Positions 40,350-57,428 of a stretch of DNA of 64,000 nt are shown here, in pieces. Below the pieces are notes generated by a model. It made no database searches, was not told where the DNA came from, and saw only the letters and a list, made by a program, of their open reading frames with translations. The stretch is from Rhodospirillales bacterium (GTDB lineage Bacteria; Pseudomonadota; Alphaproteobacteria; CACIAM-22H2), in contig CANFCX010000002.1 of assembly GCA_947445225.1 (NCBI GenBank), positions 26,119 to 90,118 of the forward strand, read 5' to 3'. A program made the translations under genes and the position numbers. Position 1 is the stretch's first letter, and every line of letters begins with the position of its first letter.

Positions 40350-41362
40350 TCCTGTTCGGTCGCGATCTTGATAAGGATGTGGCCGTGGTCGCCGAAATCG
40401 GCGTCAACCACGAAGGCAACGTCGATGTGGCCTCCCGCATCCTTGCCGCCGCCGCGAAGGCCGGGGCCGATGCGGTCAAGCTGCAAAGTTACACGCCCGA
40501 GCGTTACACCTCCGCTTCGGACGCCGAACGTTTTGCCCGAGTCTCGCGCGTCGCCCTCGACATCGCCGCCCACGACCGCCTGGCAGCGGAGGCCAAGGCA
40601 ATCGGCATTCCCTTGTTTTCGACACCGCTTTCCGAAGATTGGGTCCAGCCGATCGCGGAATTCGCTCCGGCCATCAAGATCGCGAGCGGCGATCTGACGT
40701 TCGAGACCGTGATCCGCGCCGCCGCCCGCACCGGCAAGCCGGTCCTCCTCTCGACCGGCTGCGGTGTCGTCGATGAAATCGACCGGGCCGTGGGTTGGGT
40801 GCGCGACGAGGTTGGTCCGAAGGCATTGAACGAAAGGTTGGTTCTGCTGCATTGCGTGTCCGGCTATCCCACGCCCATTGAGCAGGCCAATGTGCGCGCC
40901 GTGCCTTTCCTGAAGGCACGGTACGGCCTGCCGGTCGGCTACTCCAACCATGTCATCGGGTCCGAGGCCGTGCTGGCCGCCGCGGCTTTGGGGGCGGCGG
41001 TTATCGAGGTCCACGTTACCGATGCCAATCTGCGGGAGACGAGCAGCTTCCGCGATCACCGTCTGTCGTTCACCGGGCCGGAACTGGCGGCGCTCATCCA
41101 ATCCATCCGGGGCGTGAAATCCGCGCTGGGCGATGCGGCGAAGACCGTGCAGGCGGCGGAGGCCGGGAATCGAGACGCAATCCGCAAGGGGATCGTCGCC
41201 AAACACGACCTTGCCGCGGGTGTCGTGTTGACCGATGACGATCTGCTCTATGCGCGCCCGGCAACACAGTTCCTCGCCGCCGAACGTCCGACACTTATCG
41301 GCCGGCGTTTGCTGCGCGCCTTGCGCCGGGGTGAGATCGTTCCGCGGGACGCGGTGAAATAA
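40346..41362 (+). CDS. N-acetylneuraminate synthase family protein (NeuB/LegI/PseI-type) with SAF domain
   Basis: VVAEIGVNHEGN...KAGADAVKLQ N-terminus and C-terminal SAF-like domain. Confidence 0.85.
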   Translation: MILFGRDLDKDVAVVAEIGVNHEGNVDVASRILAAAAKAGADAVKLQSYTPERYTSASDAERFARVSRVALDIAAHDRLAAEAKAIGIPLFSTPLSEDWVQPIAEFAPAIKIASGDLTFETVIRAAARTGKPVLLSTGCGVVDEIDRAVGWVRDEVGPKALNERLVLLHCVSGYPTPIEQANVRAVPFLKARYGLPVGYSNHVIGSEAVLAAAALGAAVIEVHVTDANLRETSSFRDHRLSFTGPELAALIQSIRGVKSALGDAAKTVQAAEAGNRDAIRKGIVAKHDLAAGVVLTDDDLLYARPATQFLAAERPTLIGRRLLRALRRGEIVPRDAVK

Positions 41363-41365
41363 TCC

Positions 41366-43192
41366 ATGTGCGGCATTGCCGGCGCCATCCATAGAAGCCC
41401 GCTCGATGATAAGCGCATCGCCGCGACCTTCGCCGCGATGAAGAACCGCGGACCCGATGGCAGCGGCGTCCATCGCGGCACATTGGGCGGCTTTTCCGTG
41501 ACGCTGCTCCACACGCGACTTGCCATCATCGATCTCGATCCGCGCGCCAATCAGCCCTTCATTCGCGGCAACCTCGTGCTCATCTACAACGGCGAAATCT
41601 ACAATTACGTCGAGCTGCGCGCGGAGTTGGAGGGGCTTGGACACCGCTTCACGACGACATCGGATACCGAGGTCATCGTCGAGGCATGGCGGGAGTGGGG
41701 AAAGGCGTCGTTCGACCGCTTCGAGGGGATGTGGGCCTTCGCCCTTCTCGATACGGCCAAGGATCGTTTGATCCTGTCGCGCGACCGCTTCGGCGAAAAG
41801 CCGCTTTATTTCATGCGCCATGACGGCGCGTTGTATTTCGCTTCCGAGGTGAAATTTCTCGAGGCGCTTTCGGGTCATCGGCCCGCCGCCAATCTTCGCC
41901 AGGTGCGGCGCTACCTCGTTAATGGCTACAAGTCGTTATACAAGGGACAAGACACCTTCTTCGACGGCGTCGGCGCGTTGCCGGCCTCTACCTTCGCCGA
42001 GATGGCCGGTCCGGATTTGCCCATGCCCCGCCGCTATTGGCGACTGGAATACGCCCCACAGGCAATGTCGGCGCCTGACGCCGCCGATGGCGTGCGCGCA
42101 CGTTTGACGCGAGCCGTCGAAATCAGGCTGCGCGCGGACGTCCCGGTTGCCTTCTGCCTGTCCGGCGGCATCGATTCGGGAACCCTGGCGGCCCTGGCCG
42201 TCAAACATTTCGGCGCCCGCCTACATGCCTTTTCGATCATTGACGGCGACGCCCGCTACAACGAAAGCGCCAATATCGCGACCGTGGTCGAGGATCTCGG
42301 CTGCGAGCATCATATCGTCCACACATCGACCGAGGGTTTCCTCGATCGCCTTGACGCGCAAATCGCCTATCACGACGCCCCGGTGGCGACGATCACCTAT
42401 TACCTGCACGCGTTCCTGTCGCAGGCGATCGCGGCGCGCGGCTATAAGGTGGCGATCTCGGGCACGGCCGCCGACGAACTCTTCACCGGCTATTACGACC
42501 ACTACGCCTTCTGGCTGGCCGAACAGCGCGACCGCAACGATTTCCCGCATGTCCTCGACGAATGGCGCAAGAGTTATGGCGCCTTTGTCCAGAACCCGTT
42601 GCTCCAAGATCCCCTCCGTTTCGTCGCCGAGCCCTGCGCGCGCGACCATATTTTCCTGAACGCGGACTTCTTTTCTTCCCTGTTGCGCGATCCCTTCGAC
42701 GAACCCTTCGCGGAGGCGGCCTATAGCGGCAATTTGCTGCGGAACCGGATGCTGAACGAACTCCAACACGAATCCATCCCGGTGATCCTCGGCGAGGACG
42801 ACATGAATTCGATGGAATATTCCATCGAGAACCGTTCGCCCTATCTCGACCGCGATCTGGCGGAGTTCGCTTATCGGATTCCCAACGCGCACCTGATTCG
42901 CGACGGCTTCGTCAAATGGCCGCTGCGCGAAGCCGGGGCCGGAAGCCTGCATGACCGCGTGCGCCTGGACCGGCGCAAGCGGGGATTCAATGCTTCCATC
43001 GAATCGCTGCTCGACCGCCGCGATCCGCGGGTTCGGGAGCGCCTGCTCGCCCCCGGTCCAATTTTCGACGTGGTTGATCGCAAGCGTTTTCTCGAATTCT
43101 TCGACGCCGACATGACCGACAACAGTTTCTCGAAATTCCTGTTCAGTTTCGTTTCGGCGCGCCTGTTCCTCGATCGCCGAGCAGCGGCTTGA
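41366..43192 (+). CDS. asparagine synthetase B-type glutamine amidotransferase (copy 1)
   Basis: MCGIAG nucleophile, PP-loop CLSGGIDS. Confidence 0.85.
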   Translation: MCGIAGAIHRSPLDDKRIAATFAAMKNRGPDGSGVHRGTLGGFSVTLLHTRLAIIDLDPRANQPFIRGNLVLIYNGEIYNYVELRAELEGLGHRFTTTSDTEVIVEAWREWGKASFDRFEGMWAFALLDTAKDRLILSRDRFGEKPLYFMRHDGALYFASEVKFLEALSGHRPAANLRQVRRYLVNGYKSLYKGQDTFFDGVGALPASTFAEMAGPDLPMPRRYWRLEYAPQAMSAPDAADGVRARLTRAVEIRLRADVPVAFCLSGGIDSGTLAALAVKHFGARLHAFSIIDGDARYNESANIATVVEDLGCEHHIVHTSTEGFLDRLDAQIAYHDAPVATITYYLHAFLSQAIAARGYKVAISGTAADELFTGYYDHYAFWLAEQRDRNDFPHVLDEWRKSYGAFVQNPLLQDPLRFVAEPCARDHIFLNADFFSSLLRDPFDEPFAEAAYSGNLLRNRMLNELQHESIPVILGEDDMNSMEYSIENRSPYLDRDLAEFAYRIPNAHLIRDGFVKWPLREAGAGSLHDRVRLDRRKRGFNASIESLLDRRDPRVRERLLAPGPIFDVVDRKRFLEFFDADMTDNSFSKFLFSFVSARLFLDRRAAA

Positions 43193-43809
43193 CGGCGACG
43201 ATCGCCATCGTGGACTACGGACTGGGCAACCTTACGTCGGTGGCCGGGGCGGTCGAACGGCTTGGTTTCTTACCCAGGCTTGCCGCCGACCCCGCCGCGC
43301 TGGAAACCGCCGACAAATTTATCCTGCCGGGGGTTGGCGCCTTCGGCGATGGAATGGCCGAGCTGCATCGGCGCGGCCTCGCCGACGCGCTGAACCGACT
43401 GGTTCTGGGGGCGGGCAGGCCGATCCTGGGCATTTGCCTGGGCGCTCAACTGCTCGCCCGCGGCAGCGCCGAGTTCGGCGATCACCGCGGCCTGGGGTGG
43501 CTGGACGCCGAGGTTGTTCGCATCGACCCAGCGGACACGAACCTGCGCGTCCCCCATGTCGGATGGAACGAGTTGCGCCGGAAACGCGATAGCGTGTTGT
43601 TCAAGAACGTCCCCGACGACGCGCTTTTCTACTACGTCCATAGTTTTCACATTTGCGGCGACCGCGACGTCATCACCGGCGAGACCGATTACGGCGGCCC
43701 GGTGACGGCGACGGTCGAGAAGGGGCGCATTTACGGAACCCAATTTCATCCCGAAAAGAGCCAGCGCCACGGCCTCACCGTCTTGCGCAATTTCCTCGAA
43801 GAGGGCTGA
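43189..43809 (+). CDS. HisH-like glutamine amidotransferase subunit (WbuY-type)
   Basis: IAIVDYGLGNL, GICLGAQLL catalytic Cys, HPE; TTG start overlapping upstream stop. Confidence 0.85.
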   Translation: MTATIAIVDYGLGNLTSVAGAVERLGFLPRLAADPAALETADKFILPGVGAFGDGMAELHRRGLADALNRLVLGAGRPILGICLGAQLLARGSAEFGDHRGLGWLDAEVVRIDPADTNLRVPHVGWNELRRKRDSVLFKNVPDDALFYYVHSFHICGDRDVITGETDYGGPVTATVEKGRIYGTQFHPEKSQRHGLTVLRNFLEEG

Positions 43810-43817
43810 GGAGGGTC

Positions 43818-44564
43818 GTGTTACGCAAACGCCTGGTGACCGTCCTCACCTTCAACGACGGGGTCTTGTTCCGGACGAAGGATTTCCTGCCGGACTATCG
43901 CTATACGCTCAATTTCGTGGATGCGTGGTCGGTGGACGAAATCGTTGTCCTCGATGTCACGCGGCCGGGCAGCGGCCAGCGGGCCAATTTTCTCGAGGTC
44001 GTGCGCCGTTTCGCCGGTAAGTGTTTCGTGCCGCTGGCCGCCGGCGGTGGCCTTCGCCATCTCGATGACGTGCGCGAGATGATGGGCATCGGCGCGGACA
44101 AAGTCGTGGTCAATTCCGCCGCGATTCGGCGGCCGGAATTCATTACCGAAATCGCGCGGGCCTACGGCGCGCAATGTGTTGTCGTCTGCATCGACGCCAG
44201 AAAGCGCGCCGAGGGCGGCTATGAAGTATTCGCGGATTTCGCGTCCTCCCCCACCGGCCTGACACCGGAAAATTGGGCACAGGAGGCGGTGCGGCGGGGA
44301 GCCGGTGAGATTCTTATCCAGGCCGTGGACCGCGATGGGTCGCTCGAGGGTTATGATCTCGAACTCTGCCGGGCGGTCGCCGATGCGGTCGACGTACCGG
44401 TCCTGATCCTCGGCGGCGCCGGCCAATGGCAGCACTTCGTCGAGGGATTCCGGGAGGCCCGCGCCTCCGCCGTGTGCACCCAAAACATCTACCACTTCAC
44501 CGAGACCGCGATCAAAAGCGCGAAGACCTTTCTTACCAAAGCCGGAATCGAAATCCGCCCATGA
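43818..44564 (+). CDS. HisF-like cyclase subunit (WbuZ-type)
   Basis: (beta/alpha)8 HisF signatures (VPLAAGGG, DKVVVNSAA); GTG 43818 preceded by GAGGAGGG. Confidence 0.85.
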   Translation: MLRKRLVTVLTFNDGVLFRTKDFLPDYRYTLNFVDAWSVDEIVVLDVTRPGSGQRANFLEVVRRFAGKCFVPLAAGGGLRHLDDVREMMGIGADKVVVNSAAIRRPEFITEIARAYGAQCVVVCIDARKRAEGGYEVFADFASSPTGLTPENWAQEAVRRGAGEILIQAVDRDGSLEGYDLELCRAVADAVDVPVLILGGAGQWQHFVEGFREARASAVCTQNIYHFTETAIKSAKTFLTKAGIEIRP

Positions 44565-44587
44565 TGTCGTTCACCATCGAGTAGGCA

Positions 44588-45697
44588 ATGTTCCAGTTCT
44601 GCAAAAAATGTCTGATGCCGTCGAGCAGGCCCCGTATCGGCTTTAATCCCGAGGGGATATGCAACGGTTGCCTCAATGCCGAAGAAAAGAACCATGTGGA
44701 TTGGGGGGCCAGGGGCCAGGAATTCCTGGATCTCATCGCCGCCTATAAATCCACGGATGGTAGTTGGGATTGTGTCGTGCCGTGGAGCGGCGGCAAGGAT
44801 TCAAGCGCGATCGCATGGCGGCTGAAATTCGACTACGGCCTTAATCCGCTACTCGTCACGTTTTCGCCGATGATCCCCTCCGAGATCGGGCAACACAATC
44901 GCGAACAGATGCTGAAGGCTGGATTCGACCACCTTCTCGTCCGGCCGAATCAGAAAGTAGCGCGCCACCTCGCCCATCGCTTTTTCGTCGAGCGTGGCAA
45001 CCCCAAGGTGGCCTGGGACGCCGGCGTTAATACGATCCCCTTGCAGGTCGCCGTGCGGTATCGCATCCCGCTGGTCTTTTACGCCGAACATGGCGAAAGC
45101 GAATATGGCGGCAAGGTCCGCAACGAAGAGTCGAAAAAAATTCGCGACTTCACCGAAGTCATCGAACATCAGATCGGCGACGATCCGCGCAACTGGGTCG
45201 ATGACAAGATCGGGGCCGGCGATCTCAACCCCTATCACTATCCCGACCGCGACGCCGTCGCCGCCGTGGGCGTGAAGGCGCTCTATTTCGCCTACTTCCA
45301 CCGATGGGACGTGGTGTCCAATTACGAACTCATCGCCGAAAAGATCGACTTCAAGACCGTTCCCTGGGGCCGCAGCGAAGGCACGTTCACGAGTTTCGAC
45401 AGCCTCGACGACAAGATCGACGACCTCTATTACTACCTTCAATTCATCAAATTCGGATTTGGCCGAGCCGTGCGCGACGCCAGCCGGCAAATCCAAAACG
45501 GCCGCCTGACCCGCGCCCAAGGTCTGGACCTAGCCCAACGTTATGACGGCGAGTTCCCTGGGGAACATATCGATGCCACGCTCGAATTCCTGGGCCTCGG
45601 CCGCGGCGAGTTCGAGCACATCGTCGATCTTCATCGCAATCCCGAAATCTGGACGATTCAAGGCAATGAATGGCATTTGCGCAACCCGTTGCGTTAA
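44588..45697 (+). CDS. N-acetyl sugar amidotransferase (WbuX/PseA-like, PP-loop)
   Basis: N-terminal CxxC...CxxC (CKKCLMP...CNGCLN) and PP-loop VPWSGGKDSS typical of TIGR03573-type proteins. Confidence 0.8.
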   Translation: MFQFCKKCLMPSSRPRIGFNPEGICNGCLNAEEKNHVDWGARGQEFLDLIAAYKSTDGSWDCVVPWSGGKDSSAIAWRLKFDYGLNPLLVTFSPMIPSEIGQHNREQMLKAGFDHLLVRPNQKVARHLAHRFFVERGNPKVAWDAGVNTIPLQVAVRYRIPLVFYAEHGESEYGGKVRNEESKKIRDFTEVIEHQIGDDPRNWVDDKIGAGDLNPYHYPDRDAVAAVGVKALYFAYFHRWDVVSNYELIAEKIDFKTVPWGRSEGTFTSFDSLDDKIDDLYYYLQFIKFGFGRAVRDASRQIQNGRLTRAQGLDLAQRYDGEFPGEHIDATLEFLGLGRGEFEHIVDLHRNPEIWTIQGNEWHLRNPLR

Positions 45698-46596: not shown

Positions 46597-47684
46597 CGGC
46601 CGCCCCCATGCCCCAAATCCCCTATGACAGCTTCGTGGCGCCGCTCGCCGGCCAGCGCATCCTTCTGGTCGGCGGCGCCGGTTTCATCGGACACAATTTG
46701 GCCCTGGCGCTTCGTCGCGCCAATGCCGAGGTCATGGTCGCCGACAATCTGGTGGTCAACAACCTGATCGCCAATGTCGGCGACCCGGCGCTCGATCCCC
46801 TGCGCCGGCAGATGTATCTCGACTTTCTGCTCGACCGGTTCAGCCTGATGCGCGATGCCGGCGTGTTGATCCGCAATGCCGACGCCCGCAACTTGACCGA
46901 TGTCACGCGCCTCTTCGATGAATTCAAACCCAACAAGGTCGTTCAATTGGCGGCCATCGCCAGCGCCGTCGATGCCCGCAAGGATCCAGGCCTTTGTTTC
47001 GACCTTCAACTCCTCACCCTTCGCAATGTGCTGGAATTGTGCCGTCGCGGCGGTGACCTGATCGAGGTGATGTTTCTTAGCTCCAGTACCGTCTACGGCG
47101 ATTTCGAGACGCCGACCGTGGATGAGGCCACCCGCCCCCAGCCCCGCGGCATCTATGCGAACGCGAAATACATGGGCGAAAGACTGGTTCGCACTTATGC
47201 CGACCAACATGGCATCGCCTGCGTCGTGGTTCGTCCCAGCGCGCTGTATGGCGAACGTTGCATCAGCGGGCGCGTCTCCCAGGCCTTCATTGAAAACGCG
47301 CTTTCGGGGAAACCGTTGTTGCTCGAGGGCGGCGGCGATGGCCGGCTCGATTTCACCTATATCGAGGACCTGGTGCAGGGCATGGCGCGGGCGCTCTCGC
47401 TTAAAAAGCGCCCGGGTTACACGAACACGTTCAATCTGACCTTCGGCAACGCGCGCACCATCGCCGAGCTTGCGGCCATCGTTAAGAGCGTCGTGCCAAC
47501 GGCGAGGCTGGAGGAGAGACCGCGCGCCGCCGACAAACCGGTGCGCGGCACGCTGTCGACCAAGAAGGCCGAAGAGGAGTTGGGCTTCAAGGCTGGGTGG
47601 GCTCTGGAAACTGGGTATAGGCAATATTGCGAGTGGTACGCGGATCAATGGCAACGCACGGTCGCGCGGCGGAACCACGGTTGA
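46593..47684 (+). CDS. NAD-dependent epimerase/dehydratase (extended SDR) family protein
   Basis: ILLVGGAGFIGHNL Rossmann, YxxxK (YANAKYMGE); TTG 46593 or ATG 46608. Confidence 0.8.
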   Translation: MTAAPMPQIPYDSFVAPLAGQRILLVGGAGFIGHNLALALRRANAEVMVADNLVVNNLIANVGDPALDPLRRQMYLDFLLDRFSLMRDAGVLIRNADARNLTDVTRLFDEFKPNKVVQLAAIASAVDARKDPGLCFDLQLLTLRNVLELCRRGGDLIEVMFLSSSTVYGDFETPTVDEATRPQPRGIYANAKYMGERLVRTYADQHGIACVVVRPSALYGERCISGRVSQAFIENALSGKPLLLEGGGDGRLDFTYIEDLVQGMARALSLKKRPGYTNTFNLTFGNARTIAELAAIVKSVVPTARLEERPRAADKPVRGTLSTKKAEEELGFKAGWALETGYRQYCEWYADQWQRTVARRNHG

Positions 47685-49273
47685 CCGCGATCCCGCGACG
47701 CGTGAATGAGGCGGCACGGGCTGTCGCCTTCGACTTGGAGGCGATGGAACGCGACCCGGCGTGGCGCGAAAGCGTGGCGTGGCCGCTGTCGCCGGTGGAA
47801 ATCGCGTCCACTGTCGATGCACTTACGCAACGGTGGCTCGAATTCCTCGATACCCTTCGCGACGAGGGCCACCGTGACGTCGCGGTGCTGGCGGGATTGA
47901 CCCTCGTCGCAACCGCCGGCTGGTTGGCGGAGTCCGCCCTCGCCGTGACTCGCGAAGAACATGCCGGAATTCGCCTTCGCGGCGGCCCTGCCGAACTGCC
48001 CTGGCTACGCGGCGAAGTGGACACGCCGCCGCGCGCGGCTGGTCTTTCCCGCATCAAACCGCCTTCCGTACCGAAATACGCCGCCATTCGGCGCGCGCTA
48101 CGCACGGCCAGTTGGACCGCGCCGTGGCGCCTGCCGCGCGCCCTGCTGGCACCGCGCGCGACCGCGATAAGCCACAACCCGATGTTGGCGACGGCGGCGC
48201 GGCGTTTTCCGGGCGGCGTCGGGTTTAGGCATGCGGAGAGTCTGCTTCTCGACGTCCGCTCGCGGACGGTCGAACCGCTGTTCGCCGTTGGTGAACTGGC
48301 GGCGGCGGCTGCCGCGGCGCTCGCCCGGATCGGCGGACTCGGCGACATCGTCCGCCGGCGTCTCGAGCGGCTCGTCTTGGACCAGGCGCAAAGCCTGTTT
48401 GAGCAGGCAGCCCGCGACCTGGCGGCGATTCGCCAGATCCGCCTTCCCGAAATCCTGTGGTCGGGGACCGGGGGGTATTGGCCGGCGCGGGCCGCGGGGC
48501 TGGAGGTTCTGCGACGCGGCGGCGAGGTTGTCCGCTTCGATCATGGCGGCACCTTCGGCATGTTGGCCAAACTTGAGGACACCGCCCAACGTGAATTTAC
48601 CGCGGCCGGCCGTTACGTCGTGGCCACGGAAGCCGTGGCCGCCATCGCAGGGCTGGCACACCCCGAACGTATGGTGCCGTGGCGAAGCTGTCGGATCGAG
48701 GGCGCCGGTGGCGATCCGGCCTTCGCCGCCGTTCCGATTGCACCGCGGCCGGCGAAAGTCGGGCGGCGGCTGGCCGTCTACGCCCCGACATTACTCCGTG
48801 GCTACCGGCAACTGCCCCAACCCTGGCTTGCCGATCCGATCTATCTCGACTGGCAGTTGCGTTTGGCCGAAATGTTGAAGGCCTCACCGGTCGATGTCTT
48901 GTGCAAGCCGCATCCCGAGGGGCTCCTGCGCGGTCGGCCCCATCCCCTCGCCGCGGTCGCCGACACCACCTATGTCCCGTTTGAAGACGTGATCGACACC
49001 GCCGATGTCTTCGTTTTCGACTTCGCCTCGACGACCGCCTTTTGGAAGGCGCTGTGCACCGACCGGCCCGTGGTCTTCATCGACATGGGCATGGCCCCGT
49101 TCGCGGCGCCGGTCGCGGCGATGATCGCGCGCCGCTGCCGAGTCATTTCCGCGAAAATGGACGAAAGAAATCGGCCGATCGTCGATGCCTCGGCATTTGG
49201 CGAGGCCGTGGCCGGAGGTCCAGGACGCGCGGACCCTTCGGACTTCCGCCGCCTGTTGGCCGGAGAGACATGA
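47648..49273 (+). CDS. hypothetical protein, possible Capsule_synth-like transferase
   Basis: C-terminal FDFASTTAFWKALCTDRPVVFID segment reminiscent of KpsC/S motif; start ATG 47648 or TTG 47681. Confidence 0.3.
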   Translation: MATHGRAAEPRLTAIPRRVNEAARAVAFDLEAMERDPAWRESVAWPLSPVEIASTVDALTQRWLEFLDTLRDEGHRDVAVLAGLTLVATAGWLAESALAVTREEHAGIRLRGGPAELPWLRGEVDTPPRAAGLSRIKPPSVPKYAAIRRALRTASWTAPWRLPRALLAPRATAISHNPMLATAARRFPGGVGFRHAESLLLDVRSRTVEPLFAVGELAAAAAAALARIGGLGDIVRRRLERLVLDQAQSLFEQAARDLAAIRQIRLPEILWSGTGGYWPARAAGLEVLRRGGEVVRFDHGGTFGMLAKLEDTAQREFTAAGRYVVATEAVAAIAGLAHPERMVPWRSCRIEGAGGDPAFAAVPIAPRPAKVGRRLAVYAPTLLRGYRQLPQPWLADPIYLDWQLRLAEMLKASPVDVLCKPHPEGLLRGRPHPLAAVADTTYVPFEDVIDTADVFVFDFASTTAFWKALCTDRPVVFIDMGMAPFAAPVAAMIARRCRVISAKMDERNRPIVDASAFGEAVAGGPGRADPSDFRRLLAGET

Positions 49274-50955
49274 CCGCGCAAATCGCCCGACCCGCCGTCC
49301 CCGCCGCCACGTTTGTCGACATTGAAGACGGCTACGGTTGGCGGCGGACGCGCCATGGCACGATGGTGCTGTGGACCAAGGGCTACGTCCATGGGCAGTC
49401 GGCGGAATCTCTGGCGCGCGCTTTTTCCGATGCCGGCGCGGACAAACTCGAATCCGTCTTGCTCTCGCTCCACGGCCATTTTGCTCTTGTCGCCGAGACG
49501 CCGGAGTGGGCCTTGGCCGCCGTCGATCGGGTTCGCAGCATTCCGCTGTTCGTGACGGAAGGTTCCAACGGCCCGATCGTCGGTGACAATGCCTTGCGCT
49601 TGCAGGGAAGACTTCGTCCATCGCCCGAGTTCGTCGATCGCGAAGCGGCCCTGCTTCTGGGAATGTCCGGATACACGCTGGGCGCCAAAACCTTGGACCG
49701 CCGCATCGACCAGGTCGAGCCCGGCCATTTTCTATTCATACGCGGCCAGGCGGTTCCTCATCAGAAGCGCTACCACGCCTGGGTGCCTTGGAAGAGCGGC
49801 GCCGGTACGCCGGCAAAGACGACAGGCCAACTTGCCGACGTAACGCTCGGCGTGTTGGAGCGGATGGCCGCCTCGGTGGGCGACCGCCCAATTGTGGTGC
49901 CGCTCAGCGCGGGGTTGGATTCGCGCCTGGTCGTTTCCGGCCTCCATCGACTCGGTGTTCGGGACGTGCGGTGTTTTTCCTACGGACTCCCCGGAAATTA
50001 CGAGGCCGAAGCGGGGCGGAGCATCGCCGACCGGCTGGGCTATCCGTGGACATTCATTCACCTCGACCCGAAAATCCAGCGTGAGGTCTTCGCCTCGGCC
50101 GACAACCAGGCCTATGTCCGTTTTGCCGACACCCTGGCCGCGGTTCCATTCCAGCAGGATTTCCACGCCGTACGCAGCCTCCGCGATTCCGGCTGGCTGC
50201 CGAAGGACGCGGTGCTGGTTAATGGCCAGACTGGCGATTTCATTGCCGGCAATCATATCCCCGTGGCGCTGCGGCGGGCGCGATCCGAACTCGACGCCGA
50301 TTCTCGCTGGCGCCTTATTATCGACGGGCTCGTCGCCAAACATTACAGCCTGTGGGGGTTTCTCAAGACGCGGGAGAATTTGGCTCTGGTCGAAGGGCGC
50401 CTGCGCGAGGACATCGCCGCGGCCGGCGGCGCTCTTGGCGATCCCCAGACCGACCACGGGCTTTTCGAGGTGTCGGAATTCCGCAATCGCCAGTGCAAAT
50501 ACGTGATTGGCGGCCAACGCATTTACGAATACCTGGGTTTCGATTGGCGGCTGCCGTTGTGGGACAACGACTATTTGGACTTTTGGGCGGAGGCTCCACT
50601 CGCGGCCAAGGCGGGGCAGTCGCTCTACCGCCGCATGCTCGAAGAACAGAATTGGGGCGGCGTCTGGCAGGGCTGGACCTTTCCGCGGCGTGTCTCACCA
50701 GCTTGGCTCGCGCCGATGCGCCTGGCCGCCAAGGCCGCGTTCTTGCCGCTGGGACGCAAGCGATGGCATCGATTCGAACGCGCGCACTTCGCTTATTGGA
50801 TGGACGTCGTCGCCAATTACGCGATTGCACCCTATGCCCGCGTGCGACGGGATCGCCGCGATCACCGCAACGCTATTTCCTGGCATGTCGAAGCCTATTT
50901 GGCCGCCAAGGGCCTCGGCCTCGACGGACGGGAGATCGAGGCCGAATGCGCGTGA
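49270..50955 (+). CDS. asparagine-synthetase-related amidoligase lacking the N-terminal Cys nucleophile
   Basis: PP-loop VVPLSAGLDSRLV, AsnB-like GHFALV region, but protein starts MTAQ (no Cys2). Confidence 0.5.
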   Translation: MTAQIARPAVPAATFVDIEDGYGWRRTRHGTMVLWTKGYVHGQSAESLARAFSDAGADKLESVLLSLHGHFALVAETPEWALAAVDRVRSIPLFVTEGSNGPIVGDNALRLQGRLRPSPEFVDREAALLLGMSGYTLGAKTLDRRIDQVEPGHFLFIRGQAVPHQKRYHAWVPWKSGAGTPAKTTGQLADVTLGVLERMAASVGDRPIVVPLSAGLDSRLVVSGLHRLGVRDVRCFSYGLPGNYEAEAGRSIADRLGYPWTFIHLDPKIQREVFASADNQAYVRFADTLAAVPFQQDFHAVRSLRDSGWLPKDAVLVNGQTGDFIAGNHIPVALRRARSELDADSRWRLIIDGLVAKHYSLWGFLKTRENLALVEGRLREDIAAAGGALGDPQTDHGLFEVSEFRNRQCKYVIGGQRIYEYLGFDWRLPLWDNDYLDFWAEAPLAAKAGQSLYRRMLEEQNWGGVWQGWTFPRRVSPAWLAPMRLAAKAAFLPLGRKRWHRFERAHFAYWMDVVANYAIAPYARVRRDRRDHRNAISWHVEAYLAAKGLGLDGREIEAECA

Positions 50956-52214
50956 TGGTCGTCTCCCGGCTGTTCTCCGGCTTCTCCGATTCACTAACGA
51001 CGGGCACCTGGCGGCCGAAGGGCCAGCCGGCGATCTATAAGCTGCTGGAAGCCCTCGCCGCCGCGCCCGACATCGACCTGATCTCCGTCTTCGGTTGTAA
51101 GGACGAAACCGCGGGAAAACGATTCGCCGGGCGGCGATGGGCCAATGTCGATCGCCTGGGTGTCTGCGCCATCCTGCCCTATCGGCGGCGCCGCGGGCTC
51201 GCCGCGGTGGGGCTGGACACGGCGTGGCGCGAAATCACCCATGCCGCGCGTTGTCTGTGGCTCTACCTACGCCACCGTCCCGACGTCATCTATTTCACCA
51301 ATGCCAATTTCGCCATTGCCGCGCTTTTCGCGCGCCTTGGATTGGGCCGCGTCATCCTGCGGTTCATGGGCATGTTTCCAGCGGAGCAGGCATTGGCGCT
51401 ATCCCGCGGCGGTTTCGTTCGCTGGCTCTATGCTGCACCCTTCGACCACGTCGTCTGCACGCAGGAAGGCAGCGGCGCCGAATGGTACCTGCCGCGTTTG
51501 CTGCGGCCCTCGGTCCCGCTCTCGATTCTCCTGAACGGTGTGGACCGGGACCGGCCAAGCCCGGAACAGGTCGAGACACTACGCGCCAGCCTTGGGCTGA
51601 CGCGGCGACCGACAATCCTTTTTGTCGGCCGTCTGGAGACCATGAAGGGTTGCGTGGAATTTCTCGATGCGGCGCTCCTTGTCCTCAAGGAGCGGCCGGG
51701 TGCCGGCCAGTTCGTGATCGCCGGTTCGGGCAGCCTCAAGGACACGCTGCTTCGGCGTCTTGAGGATGCCGGCCGCCCCGGCGATATCCATCTTCTAGAC
51801 GGCCTGCCGCATGACTCGATGCCCGCCGTCTACGCGACCTGCGATATCTATGTCTCGCTCAACAAACATGGCAATTTGAGCAACGCCAATCTGGAGGCGC
51901 TCGCAGCCGGCAAATGTCTGGTCGTGCTGGAGGGCGATCCGGCGGCCCATATCGATCAGATCACGGAGTCGCTGCTACCCCGGGAATGCGCAAGGCGCGT
52001 TTCTCGCGCCGACATATCCCGAAATCTCGCCGACACACTCATCACATTGCTCGACCGCCCCGAACAGGCCGCCGCCCACGCCGCCGCCGCGCGGCGGCTC
52101 GCCGATAAGATCTTGATCGGCTGGGACGAGCGTGTGAGTCAGGAAATTTCCATCATTCTCGGTTCCTTCAACACAAAGGCTTCATGTACGTCATCGGCAT
52201 CAGTTCCGGCCTGA
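50955..52214 (+). CDS. glycosyltransferase family 4 (GT-B)
   Basis: GT4 C-terminal E-x7-E-like region (NLEALAAGKCLVV); start TGATG overlap. Confidence 0.65.
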   Translation: MVVSRLFSGFSDSLTTGTWRPKGQPAIYKLLEALAAAPDIDLISVFGCKDETAGKRFAGRRWANVDRLGVCAILPYRRRRGLAAVGLDTAWREITHAARCLWLYLRHRPDVIYFTNANFAIAALFARLGLGRVILRFMGMFPAEQALALSRGGFVRWLYAAPFDHVVCTQEGSGAEWYLPRLLRPSVPLSILLNGVDRDRPSPEQVETLRASLGLTRRPTILFVGRLETMKGCVEFLDAALLVLKERPGAGQFVIAGSGSLKDTLLRRLEDAGRPGDIHLLDGLPHDSMPAVYATCDIYVSLNKHGNLSNANLEALAAGKCLVVLEGDPAAHIDQITESLLPRECARRVSRADISRNLADTLITLLDRPEQAAAHAAAARRLADKILIGWDERVSQEISIILGSFNTKASCTSSASVPA

Positions 52215-53830
52215 AACACGGTCACCACGACGGCGGCGCCGTGCTCCTGCGAGACGGCGAGTTAATCGCGGCCAGCGAGGAGGAGCGGTTCACGCTCGCC
52301 AAACACGCTCGCGGGGAGCTGCCGCGCGGCGCCATCCGCTTCTGCCTCAAGAAGGCCGGCATCACGATGCGCGAGGTCGATTGGGTGTGTTCGCCGCTCA
52401 AATCATATCCGCACTATGCCCAGCGTCTGACCGATTATTTCGCCTTCAATTTCGGCCACAGCCCGAAAATTGAACTCTACGACCACCACCTCTGCCACGC
52501 GGCCAGCACCTATTACGGCTCCGGCTTCGACGAAGCCGGTGTCTTGTGCGTCGATTTCTCGGGGGATTCGAGTTCGGGCCTCGCCATCCATGGCCGGGGA
52601 ACGACGATGTCCGAGGTTGTCCGCTTCGAACGCCACAACAGCCTCGGCCTGTTCTATGGGATGTTGACGCAATACCTTGGGTTCTCCATGACCCATGACG
52701 AATACAAGGTCATGGGTCTTGCCTCCTACGGCACGCCGCGATTCCTGGAAGCCTTCGACCGCATCCTCCGTCCCGAAGGCTTCGGCTTCGTACTCGAGCG
52801 TGGCTATGACAAGCGGCTGCGCGATGCGCCGATATACACGACGGATTTTTCGACGCGACAGGAACGCATATTCACCGAATTGCTCGAAGAGGTTCTTGGG
52901 CCCCGCCGTATGCCCGGCGAAAAACTCGACGACCGCTTCCGCGATATCGCCGCGAGCGGTCAAAAGCGATTGGAGGAAATCGGCGTTCATCTCGCCCGCA
53001 CGCTGGTCCAACGCACGGGCTGTACCGATCTGTGCCTGGCCGGCGGCGTCGCCCTGAACTGCAAGATGAACATGGAGATTTGGCGGGAGGCTGGAATCCG
53101 CCGCCTCTATGTCCCGCCGGTCCCGCATGATGCCGGGGTCGCTTTGGGCGCGGCCATGCTGAAGAGCGTTGAACATGGGCATCCCATCGCGCCGCTCACC
53201 CATGCCTATTGGGGACCGGAGTATTCACCGGACGAAATCCGCCGGACGCTAGTTCAGGTCGGCGCGCGTTTTTCCGAGTGCCGCGACCCGACCGAAGCCG
53301 CCGCCGCCGATTTGCTCGCGCAACGGACCGTGGGCTGGTTTCAGGGACGCATGGAATTCGGTCCGCGCGCCCTCGGCAACCGATCCATCCTCGCCGACCC
53401 ACGCAGCACGGCGATGAAAGATCGCATCAACGCCACCATCAAATACCGTGAGGAATTCCGGCCCTTTTGCCCGTCGGTTCTTCCGGCCGCGCAGTCCGAC
53501 TATTTCGAGAACAGCTTTGACGCGCCGTTCATGGTCGTAACCTTTCCGGCACGGCCAGGGACCGCGGACATCTTGCCCGCCGTCACCCATGTCGACAACA
53601 CCGCGCGCATTCAAAGTGTCAGCGCCCAACACAATCCGCTGTTCCATCGCCTGATCGAGACGTTCGCCGAGCAGGGCGGCGTTCCGGTGGTCCTTAACAC
53701 CAGCCTCAACATCAATGAACAGCCGACGGTCAACGCCCCGCTCGAAGCGCTGCACACCTATTTCTGCAGTGGCCTTGACGTGCTCTACCTCGGCCCATTC
53801 CGTTTGGAGAAAATCCGCGATGAAGCCTGA
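52184..53830 (+). CDS. carbamoyltransferase (NodU/CmcH family)
   Basis: MYVIGISSGLKHGHHDGGAVLL Kae1/YgjD-like N-domain and C-terminal YrdC-like carbamoyltransferase domain. Confidence 0.85.
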   Translation: MYVIGISSGLKHGHHDGGAVLLRDGELIAASEEERFTLAKHARGELPRGAIRFCLKKAGITMREVDWVCSPLKSYPHYAQRLTDYFAFNFGHSPKIELYDHHLCHAASTYYGSGFDEAGVLCVDFSGDSSSGLAIHGRGTTMSEVVRFERHNSLGLFYGMLTQYLGFSMTHDEYKVMGLASYGTPRFLEAFDRILRPEGFGFVLERGYDKRLRDAPIYTTDFSTRQERIFTELLEEVLGPRRMPGEKLDDRFRDIAASGQKRLEEIGVHLARTLVQRTGCTDLCLAGGVALNCKMNMEIWREAGIRRLYVPPVPHDAGVALGAAMLKSVEHGHPIAPLTHAYWGPEYSPDEIRRTLVQVGARFSECRDPTEAAAADLLAQRTVGWFQGRMEFGPRALGNRSILADPRSTAMKDRINATIKYREEFRPFCPSVLPAAQSDYFENSFDAPFMVVTFPARPGTADILPAVTHVDNTARIQSVSAQHNPLFHRLIETFAEQGGVPVVLNTSLNINEQPTVNAPLEALHTYFCSGLDVLYLGPFRLEKIRDEA

Positions 53831-54866
53831 TACCGACCGGAGCGGCCGTTATCAGCCGCGCATCGACCTGAACGGCGCCACCGTCCTGATCACCGGCGGG
53901 AGCGGATCGTTCGGCCGGCATTTTGTGCGCGCCGTGCTCAAACATTGGCGGCCCGAGCGCCTCATCGTCTTTTCCCGCGACGAGATGAAACAATACGAAA
54001 TGCAGGGCGATCCAACGATCGGCGCGGGCGACCCGATGCGTTATTTCATCGGCGATGTCCGCGATTCCGATCGCCTGGAGATGGCCATGCGCGGGGTCGA
54101 CTACGTCATCCACGCCGCCGCGCTGAAACAGGTGCCGACGGCCGAATACAATCCCTTCGAGTGCATCCGCACCAACGTCTTGGGCGCGGAGAACGTGGTG
54201 AAGGCGGCACTCCGCACCGGCGTGAAGCGGGTCGTGGCGCTTTCCACCGACAAGGCGGTCAACCCGATCAATTTGTACGGGGCGAGCAAACTCGCCTCCG
54301 ACAAGATTTTCGTCGCGGCCAACCATTTGAGCGGCCGGGCCGGCGCGCATTTTTGCGTCGTGCGTTACGGCAATGTGCTGGGGTCTCGGGGCAGCGTCGT
54401 CCCCCTGTTCCGGACTCTCGCGGCCACGGGCGCCGGAGACGTGCCGATCACCGACCCCCGCATGACGCGGTTTTGGATCACGCTCGACCAGGGGGTTGAT
54501 TTCGTTCTGTCCGCCCTCGCCGCGATGCAGGCCGGGGAAATCTTCGTGCCCAAAATCCCCAGCGTCCTCATCACAGACCTGGCCGAAGCGATGCTTCCCG
54601 GCCGCGTTCAACGAACCGTCGGCATTCGTCCGGGCGAGAAGCTGCACGAAGTCATGGTCACCGAGGACGATGCCCGCACGACCGTCGAACTCGAAGACCG
54701 CTTTGTTATCGAACCTTCACTCAAGTTCTGGCGGTCCGAATCATTGGCCGATCGCGGCGCCAAGCGGGTTGCCGAGGGTTTTCGATACGCCAGCGACACC
54801 AACCCCGAGTGGCTCGACGCGGTTTCGCTCCGCCGCGTTCTCATCGAAAATGGACTGCTTGCCTAA
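53820..54866 (+). CDS. UDP-N-acetylglucosamine 4,6-dehydratase (PseB/FlaA1/CapE-like)
   Basis: VLITGGSGSFGRHF, YxxxK (YGASKLASD), conserved PseB-family segments. Confidence 0.85.
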   Translation: MKPDTDRSGRYQPRIDLNGATVLITGGSGSFGRHFVRAVLKHWRPERLIVFSRDEMKQYEMQGDPTIGAGDPMRYFIGDVRDSDRLEMAMRGVDYVIHAAALKQVPTAEYNPFECIRTNVLGAENVVKAALRTGVKRVVALSTDKAVNPINLYGASKLASDKIFVAANHLSGRAGAHFCVVRYGNVLGSRGSVVPLFRTLAATGAGDVPITDPRMTRFWITLDQGVDFVLSALAAMQAGEIFVPKIPSVLITDLAEAMLPGRVQRTVGIRPGEKLHEVMVTEDDARTTVELEDRFVIEPSLKFWRSESLADRGAKRVAEGFRYASDTNPEWLDAVSLRRVLIENGLLA

Positions 54867-54868
54867 CC

Positions 54869-55708
54869 ATGCGCCCGACATTGGTCACGGGCGTCACCGG
54901 CCTGCTTGGCCCCTATCTGATCGAGACGATGACAAGCCGGGGCAAGGTCGTGGGCACCGGTGGACGCGGCGGGGAAATCCCATGCGACCTGACCGATGCC
55001 CGGGCTACGCGTCGGATGGTGGAATCGGTCGATCCCGGCATTGTCATTCATTCGGCCGCGCTCAGCCTGGTCGATGAATGCGAAGGGAACCCGGCGCGCG
55101 CGGCCGCCCTCAACCGCGACGCGACGCGTAATCTGGTGTCGGCTCTGGCCCCGGATACCAAACTCGTCGCGATCTCGACGGATCAGGTTTATGCGGATAC
55201 GGACGGACCGCATCCCGAGGACAACACCGGCCCCGTCAACACTTATGGCCTCAGCAAGCTCGACAGCGAACGCGAGGCCATGGCGCATCCGGGCGCATTG
55301 ATCGTTCGCACGAATTTCTTCGGCCCGTCGCGCACGCCCGGACGACAGAGCCTTTCGGACTGGATCGCGGCAAATTTGGCTGAACGCCACCCGATCACCC
55401 TGTTTTTGGACTCCCTTTATTCGCCGCTGCAAATGGATACCGTCGCGGCGCTGATCGCCGAGGCCTTGGACAGAAACCTTTCGGGCATTTTCAATTTTGG
55501 CAGCCGCGCGGGGATGTCGAAGCGGGATTTCGGCTTTGCCGTCGCCCGGCGCCTCGGATTGGCGACCGACAGCGCGGCCTCCGGCTACGCACGAGACATT
55601 CCGGGCCGCGCCCGGCGGGCGCGCGACCTGCGCATGGATGTGAGCCGCCTGGAATCGGCTCTCGGACGGCGCCTCCCCACACTTCGAGAAGAGATCGACA
55701 GACTATGA
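54869..55708 (+). CDS. RmlD-like (dTDP-4-dehydrorhamnose reductase family) NAD(P)-dependent 4-ketoreductase
   Basis: LVTGVTGLLG, YGLSKLDSE YxxxK; 280 aa; immediately downstream of PseB-like gene. Confidence 0.7.
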   Translation: MRPTLVTGVTGLLGPYLIETMTSRGKVVGTGGRGGEIPCDLTDARATRRMVESVDPGIVIHSAALSLVDECEGNPARAAALNRDATRNLVSALAPDTKLVAISTDQVYADTDGPHPEDNTGPVNTYGLSKLDSEREAMAHPGALIVRTNFFGPSRTPGRQSLSDWIAANLAERHPITLFLDSLYSPLQMDTVAALIAEALDRNLSGIFNFGSRAGMSKRDFGFAVARRLGLATDSAASGYARDIPGRARRARDLRMDVSRLESALGRRLPTLREEIDRL

Positions 55709-56775
55709 GCCGGGAATTCACGATAGGCCGCCACCGCGTGGGTGGCCGCAACCCCACCTATTTCATCGCCGACATCGCCGCCAATCACGATGGCGATCTC
55801 GAGCGCGCGAAGCGGCTGATACGGCTGTGCGCGGAAGCCGGCGCCAGCGCCGCGAAGTTCCAGAATTTCAGGGCCGAAACCATCGTTTCCGACTATGGCT
55901 TCAAGGCGCTGGGCGGACAGAAATCGCACCAGGCCAATTGGGCAAAGAGCGTCTTCGATGTTTATGCCGATGCGTCCTTGCCGGTGGCGTGGACCGAGAC
56001 GTTGAAGGCCACCTGCAACGCGGCCGGAATCGATTATTTCACCGCGCCCTACGACCTCGACCTGATCGACCGACTCGGGCCCCATGTCTGCGCCTGGAAA
56101 CTGGGCTCTGGCGACGTGACCTGGCACGAATCGATCGAGCGCATGGCGAAGGACGGCAAACCCCTCATTATCGCCACCGGCGCCTCGACCATGCCCGAGG
56201 TCCGCGCCGCGATGGCGGCCGCCCGAAAATATTGCAACGACATCGTGCTGATGCAATGCAACACCAACTACACGGCGTCGCTTGAGAATTTCCAGCACGC
56301 CAACCTGAAGGTCCTCACGGCCTTCGCGGCCGAATTTCCGGACGTCATCCTCGGTCTTTCCGATCATACGCCCGGTCACGCTACGGTGCTCGGCGCCGTC
56401 GCCCTCGGGGCGAGGGCCATCGAGAAACACTTCACCGACGATTGCGAACGCACGGGTCCCGATCACAAATTTTCGATGGATCCTCGCACCTGGCGCGAGA
56501 TGGTGGATCGCACGCGCGAACTGGAAGCCGCACTCGGCGATGGGATCAAGAAGGTCGAAGACAACGAAGCCGAAACCGTGGTCCTGCAACGCCGCGCCAT
56601 TCGGGCGGCACGGGCGATCCCACGCGGTCGCAAGATCGGGGCGACCGATCTCGTCGTGCTGCGTCCGTGCCCGGCGGACGGGTTACCCCCGTACCGAAAG
56701 GCCGAACTGATCGGCCGCGTCGCCCGTCGCGCCATCGAGGCCGGCGATTGCGTGCGGCTGGCCGACGTCGAATGA
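55705..56775 (+). CDS. N-acetylneuraminate synthase family protein (NeuB/PseI-type) with SAF domain, copy 2
   Basis: PTYFIADIAANHDGDLERAKRLI...AKFQNF; C-terminal SAF domain. Confidence 0.85.
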   Translation: MSREFTIGRHRVGGRNPTYFIADIAANHDGDLERAKRLIRLCAEAGASAAKFQNFRAETIVSDYGFKALGGQKSHQANWAKSVFDVYADASLPVAWTETLKATCNAAGIDYFTAPYDLDLIDRLGPHVCAWKLGSGDVTWHESIERMAKDGKPLIIATGASTMPEVRAAMAAARKYCNDIVLMQCNTNYTASLENFQHANLKVLTAFAAEFPDVILGLSDHTPGHATVLGAVALGARAIEKHFTDDCERTGPDHKFSMDPRTWREMVDRTRELEAALGDGIKKVEDNEAETVVLQRRAIRAARAIPRGRKIGATDLVVLRPCPADGLPPYRKAELIGRVARRAIEAGDCVRLADVE

Positions 56776-57428
56776 AAGCCGGGATCGTCATCCCCGCGCT
56801 GAACGAGGAAAAAACCATCGTCGAAGTCGTGCGCAGCGTCCGCCCCTATGGCGAGGTGATCGTCGTCGATGACGGCTCCAGCGACGCCACGGCGGCGCTG
56901 GCCGAGACGGCGGGCGCCATTGTCGTCCGGCACGCGGCCAATCGCGGCTATGACGGCGCGCTCGCCAGCGGCTTCGCGCGGGCGGCGTCCTTGAACTTCG
57001 ATGCGGCCTTGTCTTTCGACGCGGACGGGCAACACGATCCCACCGTGATCGCGCGTATGTTGACCCCAATCGCCGCCGGGCAAGCGGATCTGGTGCTCGG
57101 AGCACGGCCGCACCCCGCCCGACCCTCCGAATGGCTGTTCGATCTTTATGCGCGCACCCGATTCGGCGTTCCCGACATCTTGTGCGGCCTCAAGGCATTT
57201 TCGGCATCGGTCTATCGCGCCCATGGCGCGGCGGCGGAAAGGCGATCGATCAATACGGCCATGGCTCTGGCCGCGATCCGCGCGGGCCGCCGTTGGGCAA
57301 ACGTCGCCGTACCGATCCGGCCGCGCGACGGACAACCCCGATTCGGCTCGGCCCTGCGGGCGAACTGGCGGATCGTCAAGGCGCTAGGCGGCGCCGTCGC
57401 CGATGATTTCGGCGGCAGGCCGGCATGA
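56772..57428 (+). CDS. glycosyltransferase family 2 (small, DPM1-like)
   Basis: VIPALNEEKTI...VIVVDDGSSD GT2 N-terminus. Confidence 0.6.
   Translation: MKAGIVIPALNEEKTIVEVVRSVRPYGEVIVVDDGSSDATAALAETAGAIVVRHAANRGYDGALASGFARAASLNFDAALSFDADGQHDPTVIARMLTPIAAGQADLVLGARPHPARPSEWLFDLYARTRFGVPDILCGLKAFSASVYRAHGAAAERRSINTAMALAAIRAGRRWANVAVPIRPRDGQPRFGSALRANWRIVKALGGAVADDFGGRPA

Follow-up and report, generated by a model that had tools for sequence, protein, structure and literature searches.

A cysteine-less member of the AsnB superfamily in a nonulosonic-acid glycan locus of a Rhodospirillales bacterium: a candidate amide-forming tailoring enzyme

Introduction

Nonulosonic acids (pseudaminic acid, legionaminic acid, and sugars related to them) decorate flagella, capsules, and O-antigens, where they influence recognition by the immune system and attack by phages, and for many of their substituents no enzyme has been assigned. 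The subject of this report is a gene in a 64,000-nucleotide stretch of DNA from a Rhodospirillales bacterium (assembly GCA_947445225.1, contig CANFCX010000002.1, forward-strand positions 26,119 to 90,118), referred to here as the window. The left 22 kb of the window is occupied by housekeeping genes, and a glycan locus takes up the rest, from about 22 kb to the end. Within this locus lies a gene, here called the target, for a 561-amino-acid protein of the AsnB (asparagine synthetase) superfamily that has no glutaminase cysteine. The target gene and the genes around it are all on the plus strand, and the protein family to which the target belongs offers a specific candidate for an ATP-dependent step of glycan modification that has no enzyme assigned to it.

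A cysteine-less protein of the AsnB superfamily

A preliminary description of the window, made from its sequence, had identified the open reading frame (ORF) of the target, its length, and its MTAQ N-terminus, all of which were reproduced here. It had also remarked on the absence of a cysteine at position 2. None of 36 aligned homologs has Cys2 either, so the missing residue is a family trait and not a start-codon artefact. The accompanying statement about the upstream sequence holds in part: no in-frame start upstream supplies a cysteine, but the TGA at 49271-49273, which had been said to close the frame, is the stop codon of the preceding gene and lies in another reading frame than the target. 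The target frame is in fact open back to 49042. Its upstream start candidates (TTG 49042, GTG 49054, and CTG 49135) would have Glu, His, and Pro as their next residues, and before the sole upstream in-frame cysteine stands an arginine codon. An alternative start was rejected on these grounds and because the N-termini of homologs fit a start at 49270; the N-terminal 20 or so residues are unconserved in the family, with conservation setting in at about residue 15-24 of the 36-sequence alignment.

The target and the preceding gene share 4 nucleotides, an ATGA junction in which the target ATG and the TGA stop overlap; GGAGAG stands before this ATG, and the ATG of the next gene lies inside the target, an overlap of 10 nucleotides. 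The target is co-transcribed and translationally coupled with a divergent GT-B fold transferase upstream and a GT4 glycosyltransferase downstream. The G+C content of the window is 64%, giving many long spurious ORFs over real genes, among them antisense ORFs across 46-52 kb. Spurious extension would lengthen the target to 637 amino acids from TTG 49042 and the downstream glycosyltransferase to 620 amino acids from GTG 50352, so that automated gene callers could mis-start both.

The target falls within the AsnB superfamily, since it scores above the Pfam cut-off for Asn_synthase (PF00733; 30.6 bits versus 21, over residues 203-268 only), has the two-domain fold, and carries a PP-loop. Profile and fold searches were needed for this assignment because a sequence search of the PDB with the single protein returned only a marginal PP-loop match to nitrile synthetase (E 0.13). 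Aligned to canonical AsnB with hhalign, the target matched over its full length (probability 99.5%, E 1.7e-21). An AlphaFold2 (AF2) model built with the family alignment as input had a mean predicted local confidence (pLDDT) of 90.9 and a predicted TM-score (pTM) of 0.90. The top Foldseek matches of this model in the PDB were two-domain AsnB-fold enzymes only, namely TsnB9, beta-lactam synthetase (beta-LS), human ASNS, carbapenam synthetase CarA, and E. coli AsnB, with E values of 3e-15 to 1e-12 over 540-590 columns (nearly full length) at 13-17% identity. The best of these was the hydroxyamidotransferase TsnB9 (7ylz; E 3e-15, TMq 0.56-0.58). When the PDB was searched with the family profile, the best matches that extended through the N-domain were to the Cys-less CarA (E 3e-5, residues 60-260) and to beta-LS (E 4e-4).

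The target is nevertheless no glutamine-hydrolyzing asparagine synthetase, and it failed every defining feature of one that was tested. Its score against the NCBIfam asparagine synthase model TIGR01536 was 33.8 bits, below the cut-off of 267.1; the match places residues 61-268 on model positions 114-318, in agreement with the AsnB-like N-domain noted in the preliminary description. Individual residues were mapped by profile-profile alignment (hhalign) to 32 canonical AsnB sequences, using mature AsnB numbering and an E. coli AsnB reference sequence checked against 1ct9, while the composition of each position in the family was counted in the 36-sequence alignment; residue equivalences given here are alignment-based. 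AsnB residues 1-23, including Cys1, have no counterpart in the family. The segment carrying R49 falls in a 12-residue deletion, and that carrying D98 is likewise deleted. The position of N74 is occupied by K/A/T/R and that of E76 by Y/H/W/F, with an invariant glycine at G75 between them. By this mapping the class-II glutaminase site (Cys1, R49, N74, E76, and D98) is wholly gone, and the earlier claim that the protein cannot hydrolyze glutamine is upheld for the family as a whole. The N-domain itself is predicted to be well folded, with pLDDT above 90.

The synthetase site and residues specific to the family

The PP-loop PLSAGLDSR is kept, as had been noted from the sequence, and its P211-L-S-A-G-x-D-S-R219 pattern is invariant in 36/36 aligned family sequences. 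In the second motif, N318-G-x-S/T-G-D323, the N, both G, and the D are likewise invariant in 36/36, and D323 is the equivalent of the Mg2+ ligand. Because the two-domain AsnB fold is complete and both the PP-loop and the Mg-ligand Asp323 are intact, ATP binding and adenylation chemistry are expected to be retained in the family.

Other parts of the synthetase site have changed. The position of AsnB E348 is Q22/N11/L2/A1 in the family, that of E352 (F324 in the target) is Y22/F14, and that of Y357 (H329) is His in 36/36, while K449 falls against a variable stretch. Extending the alignment without gaps from the conserved 'R-x-P-x-x-D' motif places Tyr411 and Gly414 at the positions of AsnB D384 and R387, which putatively bind aspartate. 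The catalytic residues of beta-LS and CarA, the Tyr348-Glu382 dyad and Lys443, also find no match: the Tyr348 position is variable (Q/N/L/A), and there are no conserved equivalents of Glu382 and Lys443 at the aligned positions. A Glu-Tyr dyad is reported to be conserved in all amidating asparagine synthetase-like (AS-like) enzymes; in PesC it consists of E363/Y368, with the same spacing as E352/Y357 of E. coli, and a Tyr to Phe change abolished PesC activity (preprint, PMC13060819).

The polar residues invariant in the family are R206, R219, Y238, E245, H329, E400, E403, R407, Q408, Y411, Q416, R417, R427, D432, K447, R484, E503, and R533. Since some 20 polar residues beyond the PP-loop and Asp323 are invariant across the family, the enzyme is likely active. 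The C-terminal region of about 100 amino acids has no sequence similarity to AsnB. In our reading of the alignment, acyl substrate, nucleophile, and catalytic base all differ from those of AsnB.

The persistence of so many residues at 45-54% identity, a pattern typical of an active site, makes it highly improbable that the target is a non-catalytic pseudoenzyme that scaffolds or regulates the flanking glycosyltransferases, an idea to which the lost glutaminase site, the several altered synthetase-site residues, and the tight coupling to glycosyltransferases (at times as a fusion) would otherwise lend themselves.

Size, distribution, and fusions of the family

Homologs of the target form at least 811 clusters at 90% identity, nearly all of them 540-580 amino acids long and 45-54% identical. 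Searching 1.84 billion representatives exhaustively with the family profile gave 2,332 clusters at 50% identity (E <= 1e-30). Where the source databases name these proteins, it is as 'asparagine synthase (glutamine-hydrolysing)' or 'asparagine synthase-related protein'; the former is a mis-annotation that can now be corrected, as the family has no glutaminase site. The exact target protein is present in NCBI and ENA without a name, and its nearest genome locus, which is fully syntenic at 91% identity, is in a metagenome-assembled genome labelled Asaia bogorensis. Carriers are mostly Alphaproteobacteria; a smaller number belong to the Gamma- and Betaproteobacteria and the Flavobacteriia. Culturable carriers include Insolitispirillum peregrinum CCUG 13795 (L048), Roseospirillum parvum 930I (L071), and Hwanghaeella sp. 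1Z406 (L054). In the literature on AsnB-like genes in pseudaminic or legionaminic acid loci, the only case found was the full-length AsnB of T. forsythia (Tanf_01265), with nothing on the Cys-less family.

Several members are fusions. P0242 joins a target-family protein to a C-terminal GT1-family glycosyltransferase, and P0094 and P0247 carry an N-terminal GNAT domain, which in P0094 is weakly PseH-like. In P0345, a metagenomic protein of 716 amino acids known from one representative truncated at both ends, a canonical Asn_synthase C-terminus reads into the target family. This parallels the adjacency of full-length AsnB and target homolog seen in eight loci, and P0345 may be a genuine fusion, or it may have arisen from a frameshift or an assembly error.

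Gene neighborhood

Of 80 genome loci retrieved, the 55 longer than 15 kb were used together with the window (56 in all) for counting; all of their ORFs were clustered de novo, recurrent clusters were annotated, and co-occurrence was recorded within 10 kb. Without exception, the target homolog points the same way as its neighbors, and it stands at the junction of two blocks. The upstream block contains PseB (21/56), PseG (21/56; 238 bits, above cut-off), NeuB (40/56), and CMP-transferases (19/56 and 15/56), and it is the frequency of NeuB that supports a link to nonulosonic acid. Next to the target homolog on this side is either the 548-amino-acid protein found in the window (20/56) or a 627-amino-acid protein (11/56; for example L051:7613-9496). 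Directly downstream is the GT1b glycosyltransferase of the window (17/56) or a 250-amino-acid protein (20/56) with an 'RHDVD' motif (for example L060:7527-8276; L010, L015, L020, L024, L060, and others). The 250- and 627-amino-acid families have no Pfam, NCBIfam, or PDB sequence match. Further downstream are a GFO/IDH/MocA oxidoreductase (27 loci), a DegT aminotransferase (34), a hexapeptide acetyltransferase (26), WbqC (14), a carbamoyltransferase (15), and GT4 glycosyltransferases (42). Other genes flanking the family encode a class-III aminotransferase (12 loci), a PIG-L/LmbE-type de-N-acetylase (8 loci), and ATP-grasp proteins. A full-length AsnB occurs within 10 kb in 25/56 loci, directly upstream of the target homolog in the eight mentioned above.

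Two suggestions of the preliminary description were not supported by these comparisons. It had offered the HisH-like subunit as a partner of the target. Only 7/56 loci have HisH and HisF within 10 kb of the family member, and in the window HisH belongs to its own acetamidino trio, completed in canonical form by the neighboring WbuX and WbuZ, so it is not the partner of the target. A uronic acid had been named as a possible substrate, yet a motif scan for UDP-sugar 6-dehydrogenase signatures within 10 kb on either side found them in 4/55 loci and not in the window. With hexuronic-acid dehydrogenases nearly absent, a uronic acid is disfavored, and the carboxylate of nonulosonic acid is the only sugar carboxylate consistently encoded. 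The remainder of the proposal, an ulosonic (nonulosonic) or other acid as acyl substrate with ammonia, an amine, or an amino acid as nucleophile, is compatible with the data.

The features of the target and genes of the glycan locus are given in Table 1. No flagellar genes are present in the window, and the locus therefore points to synthesis of a surface polysaccharide rather than to flagellin glycosylation. Searches with tblastn found no DegT (PseC) aminotransferase, PseH, or PseG in the 64 kb, which suggests that the nonulosonic acid made here is atypical and may lack the 7-amino group. The window likewise has no deacetylase (PIG-L type included), class-III aminotransferase, ATP-grasp, GNAT, or hexapeptide acetyltransferase gene.

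Table 1. Features of the target and of the surrounding glycan locus; positions are those of the window, and residue equivalences are alignment-based.
Feature	Position	Strand	Basis or score
Heparinase II/III-like protein, left edge of the glycan locus	22214-23791	+	
Two long ORFs without Pfam match, 515 and 432 amino acids	25865-27412; 28648-29946	+	
MsbA/HepA-type ABC exporter	36653-38581	+	
NeuB-type synthase	39740-41362	+	
Full-length AsnB	41366-43192	+	
HisH	43189-43809	+	
WbuZ/HisF-like	43653-44564	+	
WbuX N-acetyl-sugar amidotransferase	44588-45697	+	TIGR03573, 313.7 bits versus cut-off 203
Methyltransferase, then SDR epimerase/dehydratase	Between WbuX and the gene of the 548-amino-acid protein	+	
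548-amino-acid predicted divergent GT-B fold transferase, upstream partner of the target	47627..49273	+	AF2, Foldseek, alignment
Target gene, 561-amino-acid Cys-less AsnB-superfamily protein	49270..50955	+	ORF, homologs, hhalign, AF2/Foldseek
Degenerate Ntn/GATase-like N-domain, residues ~15-180	49312..49809	+	hhalign mapping, column composition
K37-G38-Y39 triplet in place of AsnB N74-G75-E76	49378..49386	+	hhalign
PP-loop PLSAGLDSR, residues 211-219, equivalent to AsnB S234-GGLDS-239	49900..49926	+	Pfam, alignment, hhalign
N318-G-Q-T-G-D323...G327-N-H329, equivalent to AsnB S346-G-E348-G-S-D351-E352...Y357	50221..50256	+	hhalign, column composition
Family-invariant block E400, E403, R407, Q408, Y411, G415-Q-R417, W426-RLPLWD-432, aligned with AsnB '...CARANKAMSAWGVEARVPFLD'	50467..50565	+	Alignment, hhalign, family-profile search
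Invariant Lys447, candidate stand-in for the AsnB lysines (alignment to K429 or K449 ambiguous)	50608..50610	+	Alignment, hhalign
Conserved basic C-terminal region, residues ~460-561, with invariant R484, W499, E503, R533, W538	50647..50952	+	Alignment, hhalign
GT1/GT4-family glycosyltransferase, directly downstream of the target	50946..52214	+	
NodU-like carbamoyltransferase	Between the downstream glycosyltransferase and PseB	+	
PseB equivalog	53715-54866	+	510 bits versus cut-off 408
RmlD-like reductase	54809-55708	+	
Second NeuB-type synthase	55705-56775	+	
GT2 glycosyltransferase	56442-57428	+	
CMP-sugar cytidylyltransferase	57425-58180	+	
Methyltransferase and two GT4 glycosyltransferases	Between the cytidylyltransferase and the second full-length AsnB	+	
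Second full-length AsnB	61045-62949	+	

The 548-amino-acid protein encoded immediately upstream of the target has no Pfam or NCBIfam match; a few of its homologs carry PF27859, and all are called 'hypothetical'. Its AF2 model (pLDDT 91.3) shows a divergent GT-B fold, with weak structural matches to CalG1, UrdGT2, TarL/TagF, a capsule polymerase, and KpsC (best E 4e-5, TM about 0.3), and its invariant residues are H306, R412, H429 (in 'KPHPEG'), D460, and R503. Its gene often comes after that of a CMP-sugar synthetase. From this position and the GT-B fold we infer that the protein transfers nonulosonic acid, which would make it a candidate for a new family of nonulosonic-acid transferases.

Three ulosonic-acid routes are apparently combined in the locus, with a KdsA-like DAHP_synth_1 protein (32970-34043, plus strand) in addition to the two NeuB-type synthases. 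The ORF of the first synthase has about 215 amino acids before the NeuB domain, perhaps because the TTG start is over-extended or because the protein has an additional domain. Cytidylyltransferases of the CTP_transf_3 type number three, all on the plus strand (29943-30665; 30665-32062, fused to a GT2; and 57425-58180). The block PseB-RmlD-like reductase-NeuB-GT2-CMP-transferase (53715-58180) is conserved in L005, L008, L011, L017, and L057, at 50-70% identity between loci. Both AsnB copies that the preliminary description listed as complete and beginning MCGIAG do start in this way and contain GATase_7 and Asn_synthase, and the first is directly followed by the complete WbuX/HisH/WbuZ trio (43189-45697, plus strand), the classical machinery for converting an N-acetyl to an acetamidino group.

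Proposed function and alternative explanations

On balance, and with modest confidence, we favor the view that the target is an ATP-dependent tailoring enzyme that works without glutamine, by adenylation and amide formation, on a surface polysaccharide containing a pseudaminic-type nonulosonic acid. It probably puts an unusual amide-type decoration on the bacterial surface polysaccharide. The enzyme would use ATP to adenylate a carboxylate, and the acyl-AMP would then be attacked, with formation of an amide, by a nitrogen nucleophile from a source other than glutamine hydrolysis in cis; the invariant His329, which stands at the position of the AsnB dyad tyrosine, may serve as the base. The mechanism is modeled on the logic of beta-LS, CarA, the lasso cyclases, TsnB9, PesC, and FzmA. 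Gene order, translational coupling, and fusions tie the family to the assembly of nonulosonic-acid glycans.

A more specific form of this proposal is put forward tentatively. Here the carboxylate would be C-1 of a nonulosonic-acid residue, amidated after its transfer by the GT-B protein and before the downstream glycosyltransferase extends the chain, and the amine would be ammonia, a small amine, or an amino acid. C-1 is favored because of the gene order and the absence of other sugar acids, and amidation is placed after transfer because CMP activation needs the free acid. It is conceivable, if rather unlikely, that the family as a whole represents unrecognized glycan-tailoring amide ligases that convert the C-1 carboxylate to a primary amide, an amino-acid amide, or an internal lactam between two glycosyl transfers, using a histidine center in place of the Glu-Tyr dyad. 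A C-1 amide or lactam would, in that event, neutralize the charge of the sugar. To our knowledge, no enzyme has been assigned to such a modification of a nonulosonic acid.

Several observations weigh against amide formation at a sugar carboxylate. We know of no nonulosonic-acid C-1 amide from a bacterial glycan, as far as a non-exhaustive search extends. The non-conserved positions of E348, E352, Y357, and K449, AsnB residues regarded as important for forming the acyl-adenylate, indicate that the chemistry could differ from simple amide formation, and the AsnB 'TTIR' loop falls in an alignment gap against the family. Finally, the deacetylase-like, class-III aminotransferase, and ATP-grasp flanks found in other loci fit a role in N-acylation at least as well.

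N-acylation is the main rival, although unlikely. An N-acyl ligase would adenylate an amino or hydroxy acid and move it to an amino group of a nonulosonic acid or of a 2,3-diamino sugar precursor; the product would carry a non-acetyl N-acyl substituent, and the GNAT would then acetylate the newly added amino-acyl group. Nonulosonic acids do carry diverse N-acyl groups. Besides the flanks just named, among which the 250-amino-acid 'RHDVD' protein and the PIG-L/LmbE type would be the deacetylases, the GFO-DegT-hexapeptide trio for diamino sugars (26-34 loci) and the P0094 and P0247 fusions, the former with its weakly PseH-like domain, speak for such a ligase. However, the target is kept in the window, where DegT, the deacetylases, GNAT, and the hexapeptide acetyltransferase are all missing; none of these can therefore be required for the conserved function. 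The deacetylase-like character of the 250-amino-acid neighbor is itself putative, read from its 'RHDVD' motif in a protein with no PDB or Pfam match, and known AsnB-fold enzymes adenylate the scaffold substrate and not a small donor acid.

A further alternative is an ammonia-dependent amidotransferase whose synthetase domain would amidate a carboxylate with NH3 that is free or is supplied in trans by HisH or by the glutaminase of a neighboring AsnB, perhaps as a heterodimer through the N-domain. This is quite unlikely. Canonical AS-like enzymes do take ammonia instead of glutamine (PMC13060819), a full-length AsnB is nearby in 25/56 loci, P0345 joins a canonical Asn_synthase C-terminus to the family, and the N-domain has been conserved and is predicted to be well folded though catalytically dead. 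Yet a full-length AsnB is missing from the neighborhood in over half of the loci, HisH/HisF is rare and has a WbuX partner of its own, the positions of the dyad and of E348 in amidating AS-like enzymes are altered in the family, and P0345 is a single doubly truncated protein that may be artefactual.

Least probable, together with the pseudoenzyme dismissed above, is a lactam-forming cyclase of the beta-LS/CarA kind, in which an amine of the same sugar would attack, for example to give a nonulosonic-acid lactam after de-N-acetylation: CarA and beta-LS are the best N-domain matches of the family profile and among the top structural matches, and putatively deacetylase-like neighbors occur in 24/56 loci, but the Tyr348 position is variable, the Glu382 and Lys443 equivalents are unconserved, and the window has no deacetylase. 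All three of these alternatives (ammonia in trans, lactam cyclization, and a pseudoenzyme) are less likely than N-acylation, and we return to the glutamine-independent amide-forming enzyme as the favored explanation.

Comparison with known systems

The full-length AsnB-type glycan amidotransferases, which include the two copies in the window, the XrtA/PEP-CTERM type (TIGR03108), and Tanf_01265 of T. forsythia, share the superfamily with the target and likewise occur in surface-glycan loci, some beside pseudaminic acid genes. They differ in starting with MCG, in having GATase_7 and the whole glutaminase site, and in scoring far above the Pfam cut-offs. The WbuX/PseA-type amidotransferase with HisH and WbuZ is also a PP-loop enzyme of the same locus that modifies sugars by nitrogen chemistry. 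It belongs to another family, with TIGR03573 giving no match to the target, and makes acetamidino groups with HisH/HisF-derived ammonia. A possible archaeal analogue of the target is AglU, associated with a threonine amide on ManNAc3NAmA and encoded beside AglXYZ.

AsnB itself (E. coli 1ct9; human ASNS) resembles the target in joining an N-terminal nucleophile (Ntn)-type N-domain to a PP-loop synthetase domain and in the SGxGxD-type motif with its Mg-ligand Asp. Unlike the target, it has Cys1, R49, D98, N74, E76, E348, E352/Y357, and K449, and the two are 13-19% identical (Foldseek E about 1e-13). Cys-less like the target are the AsnB-fold enzymes beta-LS (1jgt) and CarA (1q15), in which a dead N-domain is kept and the adenylated carboxylate is attacked by an amine and not by glutamine-derived ammonia; these are found in beta-lactam clusters rather than a glycan locus and are 13-17% identical to the target. 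TsnB9, PesC, FzmA, and the lasso-peptide cyclases use the same fold to join varied N-nucleophiles to pathway intermediates whose carboxylates have been adenylated, but act on polyketides or peptides. Models for lasso and macrolactam cyclases do not recognize the target (NF033561, 16.3 bits versus a cut-off of 300; NF033535, no match), and its context holds glycan genes only, with no precursor peptide.

Across AS-like enzymes, amidation, lactamization, and the transfer of hydroxylamine or hydrazine to adenylated carboxylates have been described (PMC13060819, PMC13622209). That Cys-less AsnB-fold enzymes couple adenylated carboxylates to other nucleophiles is thus already known, and the principle is well established. 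The target family works like these known Cys-less AS-like adenylating enzymes, but with a distinct catalytic constellation and in a new context, that of glycan biosynthesis.

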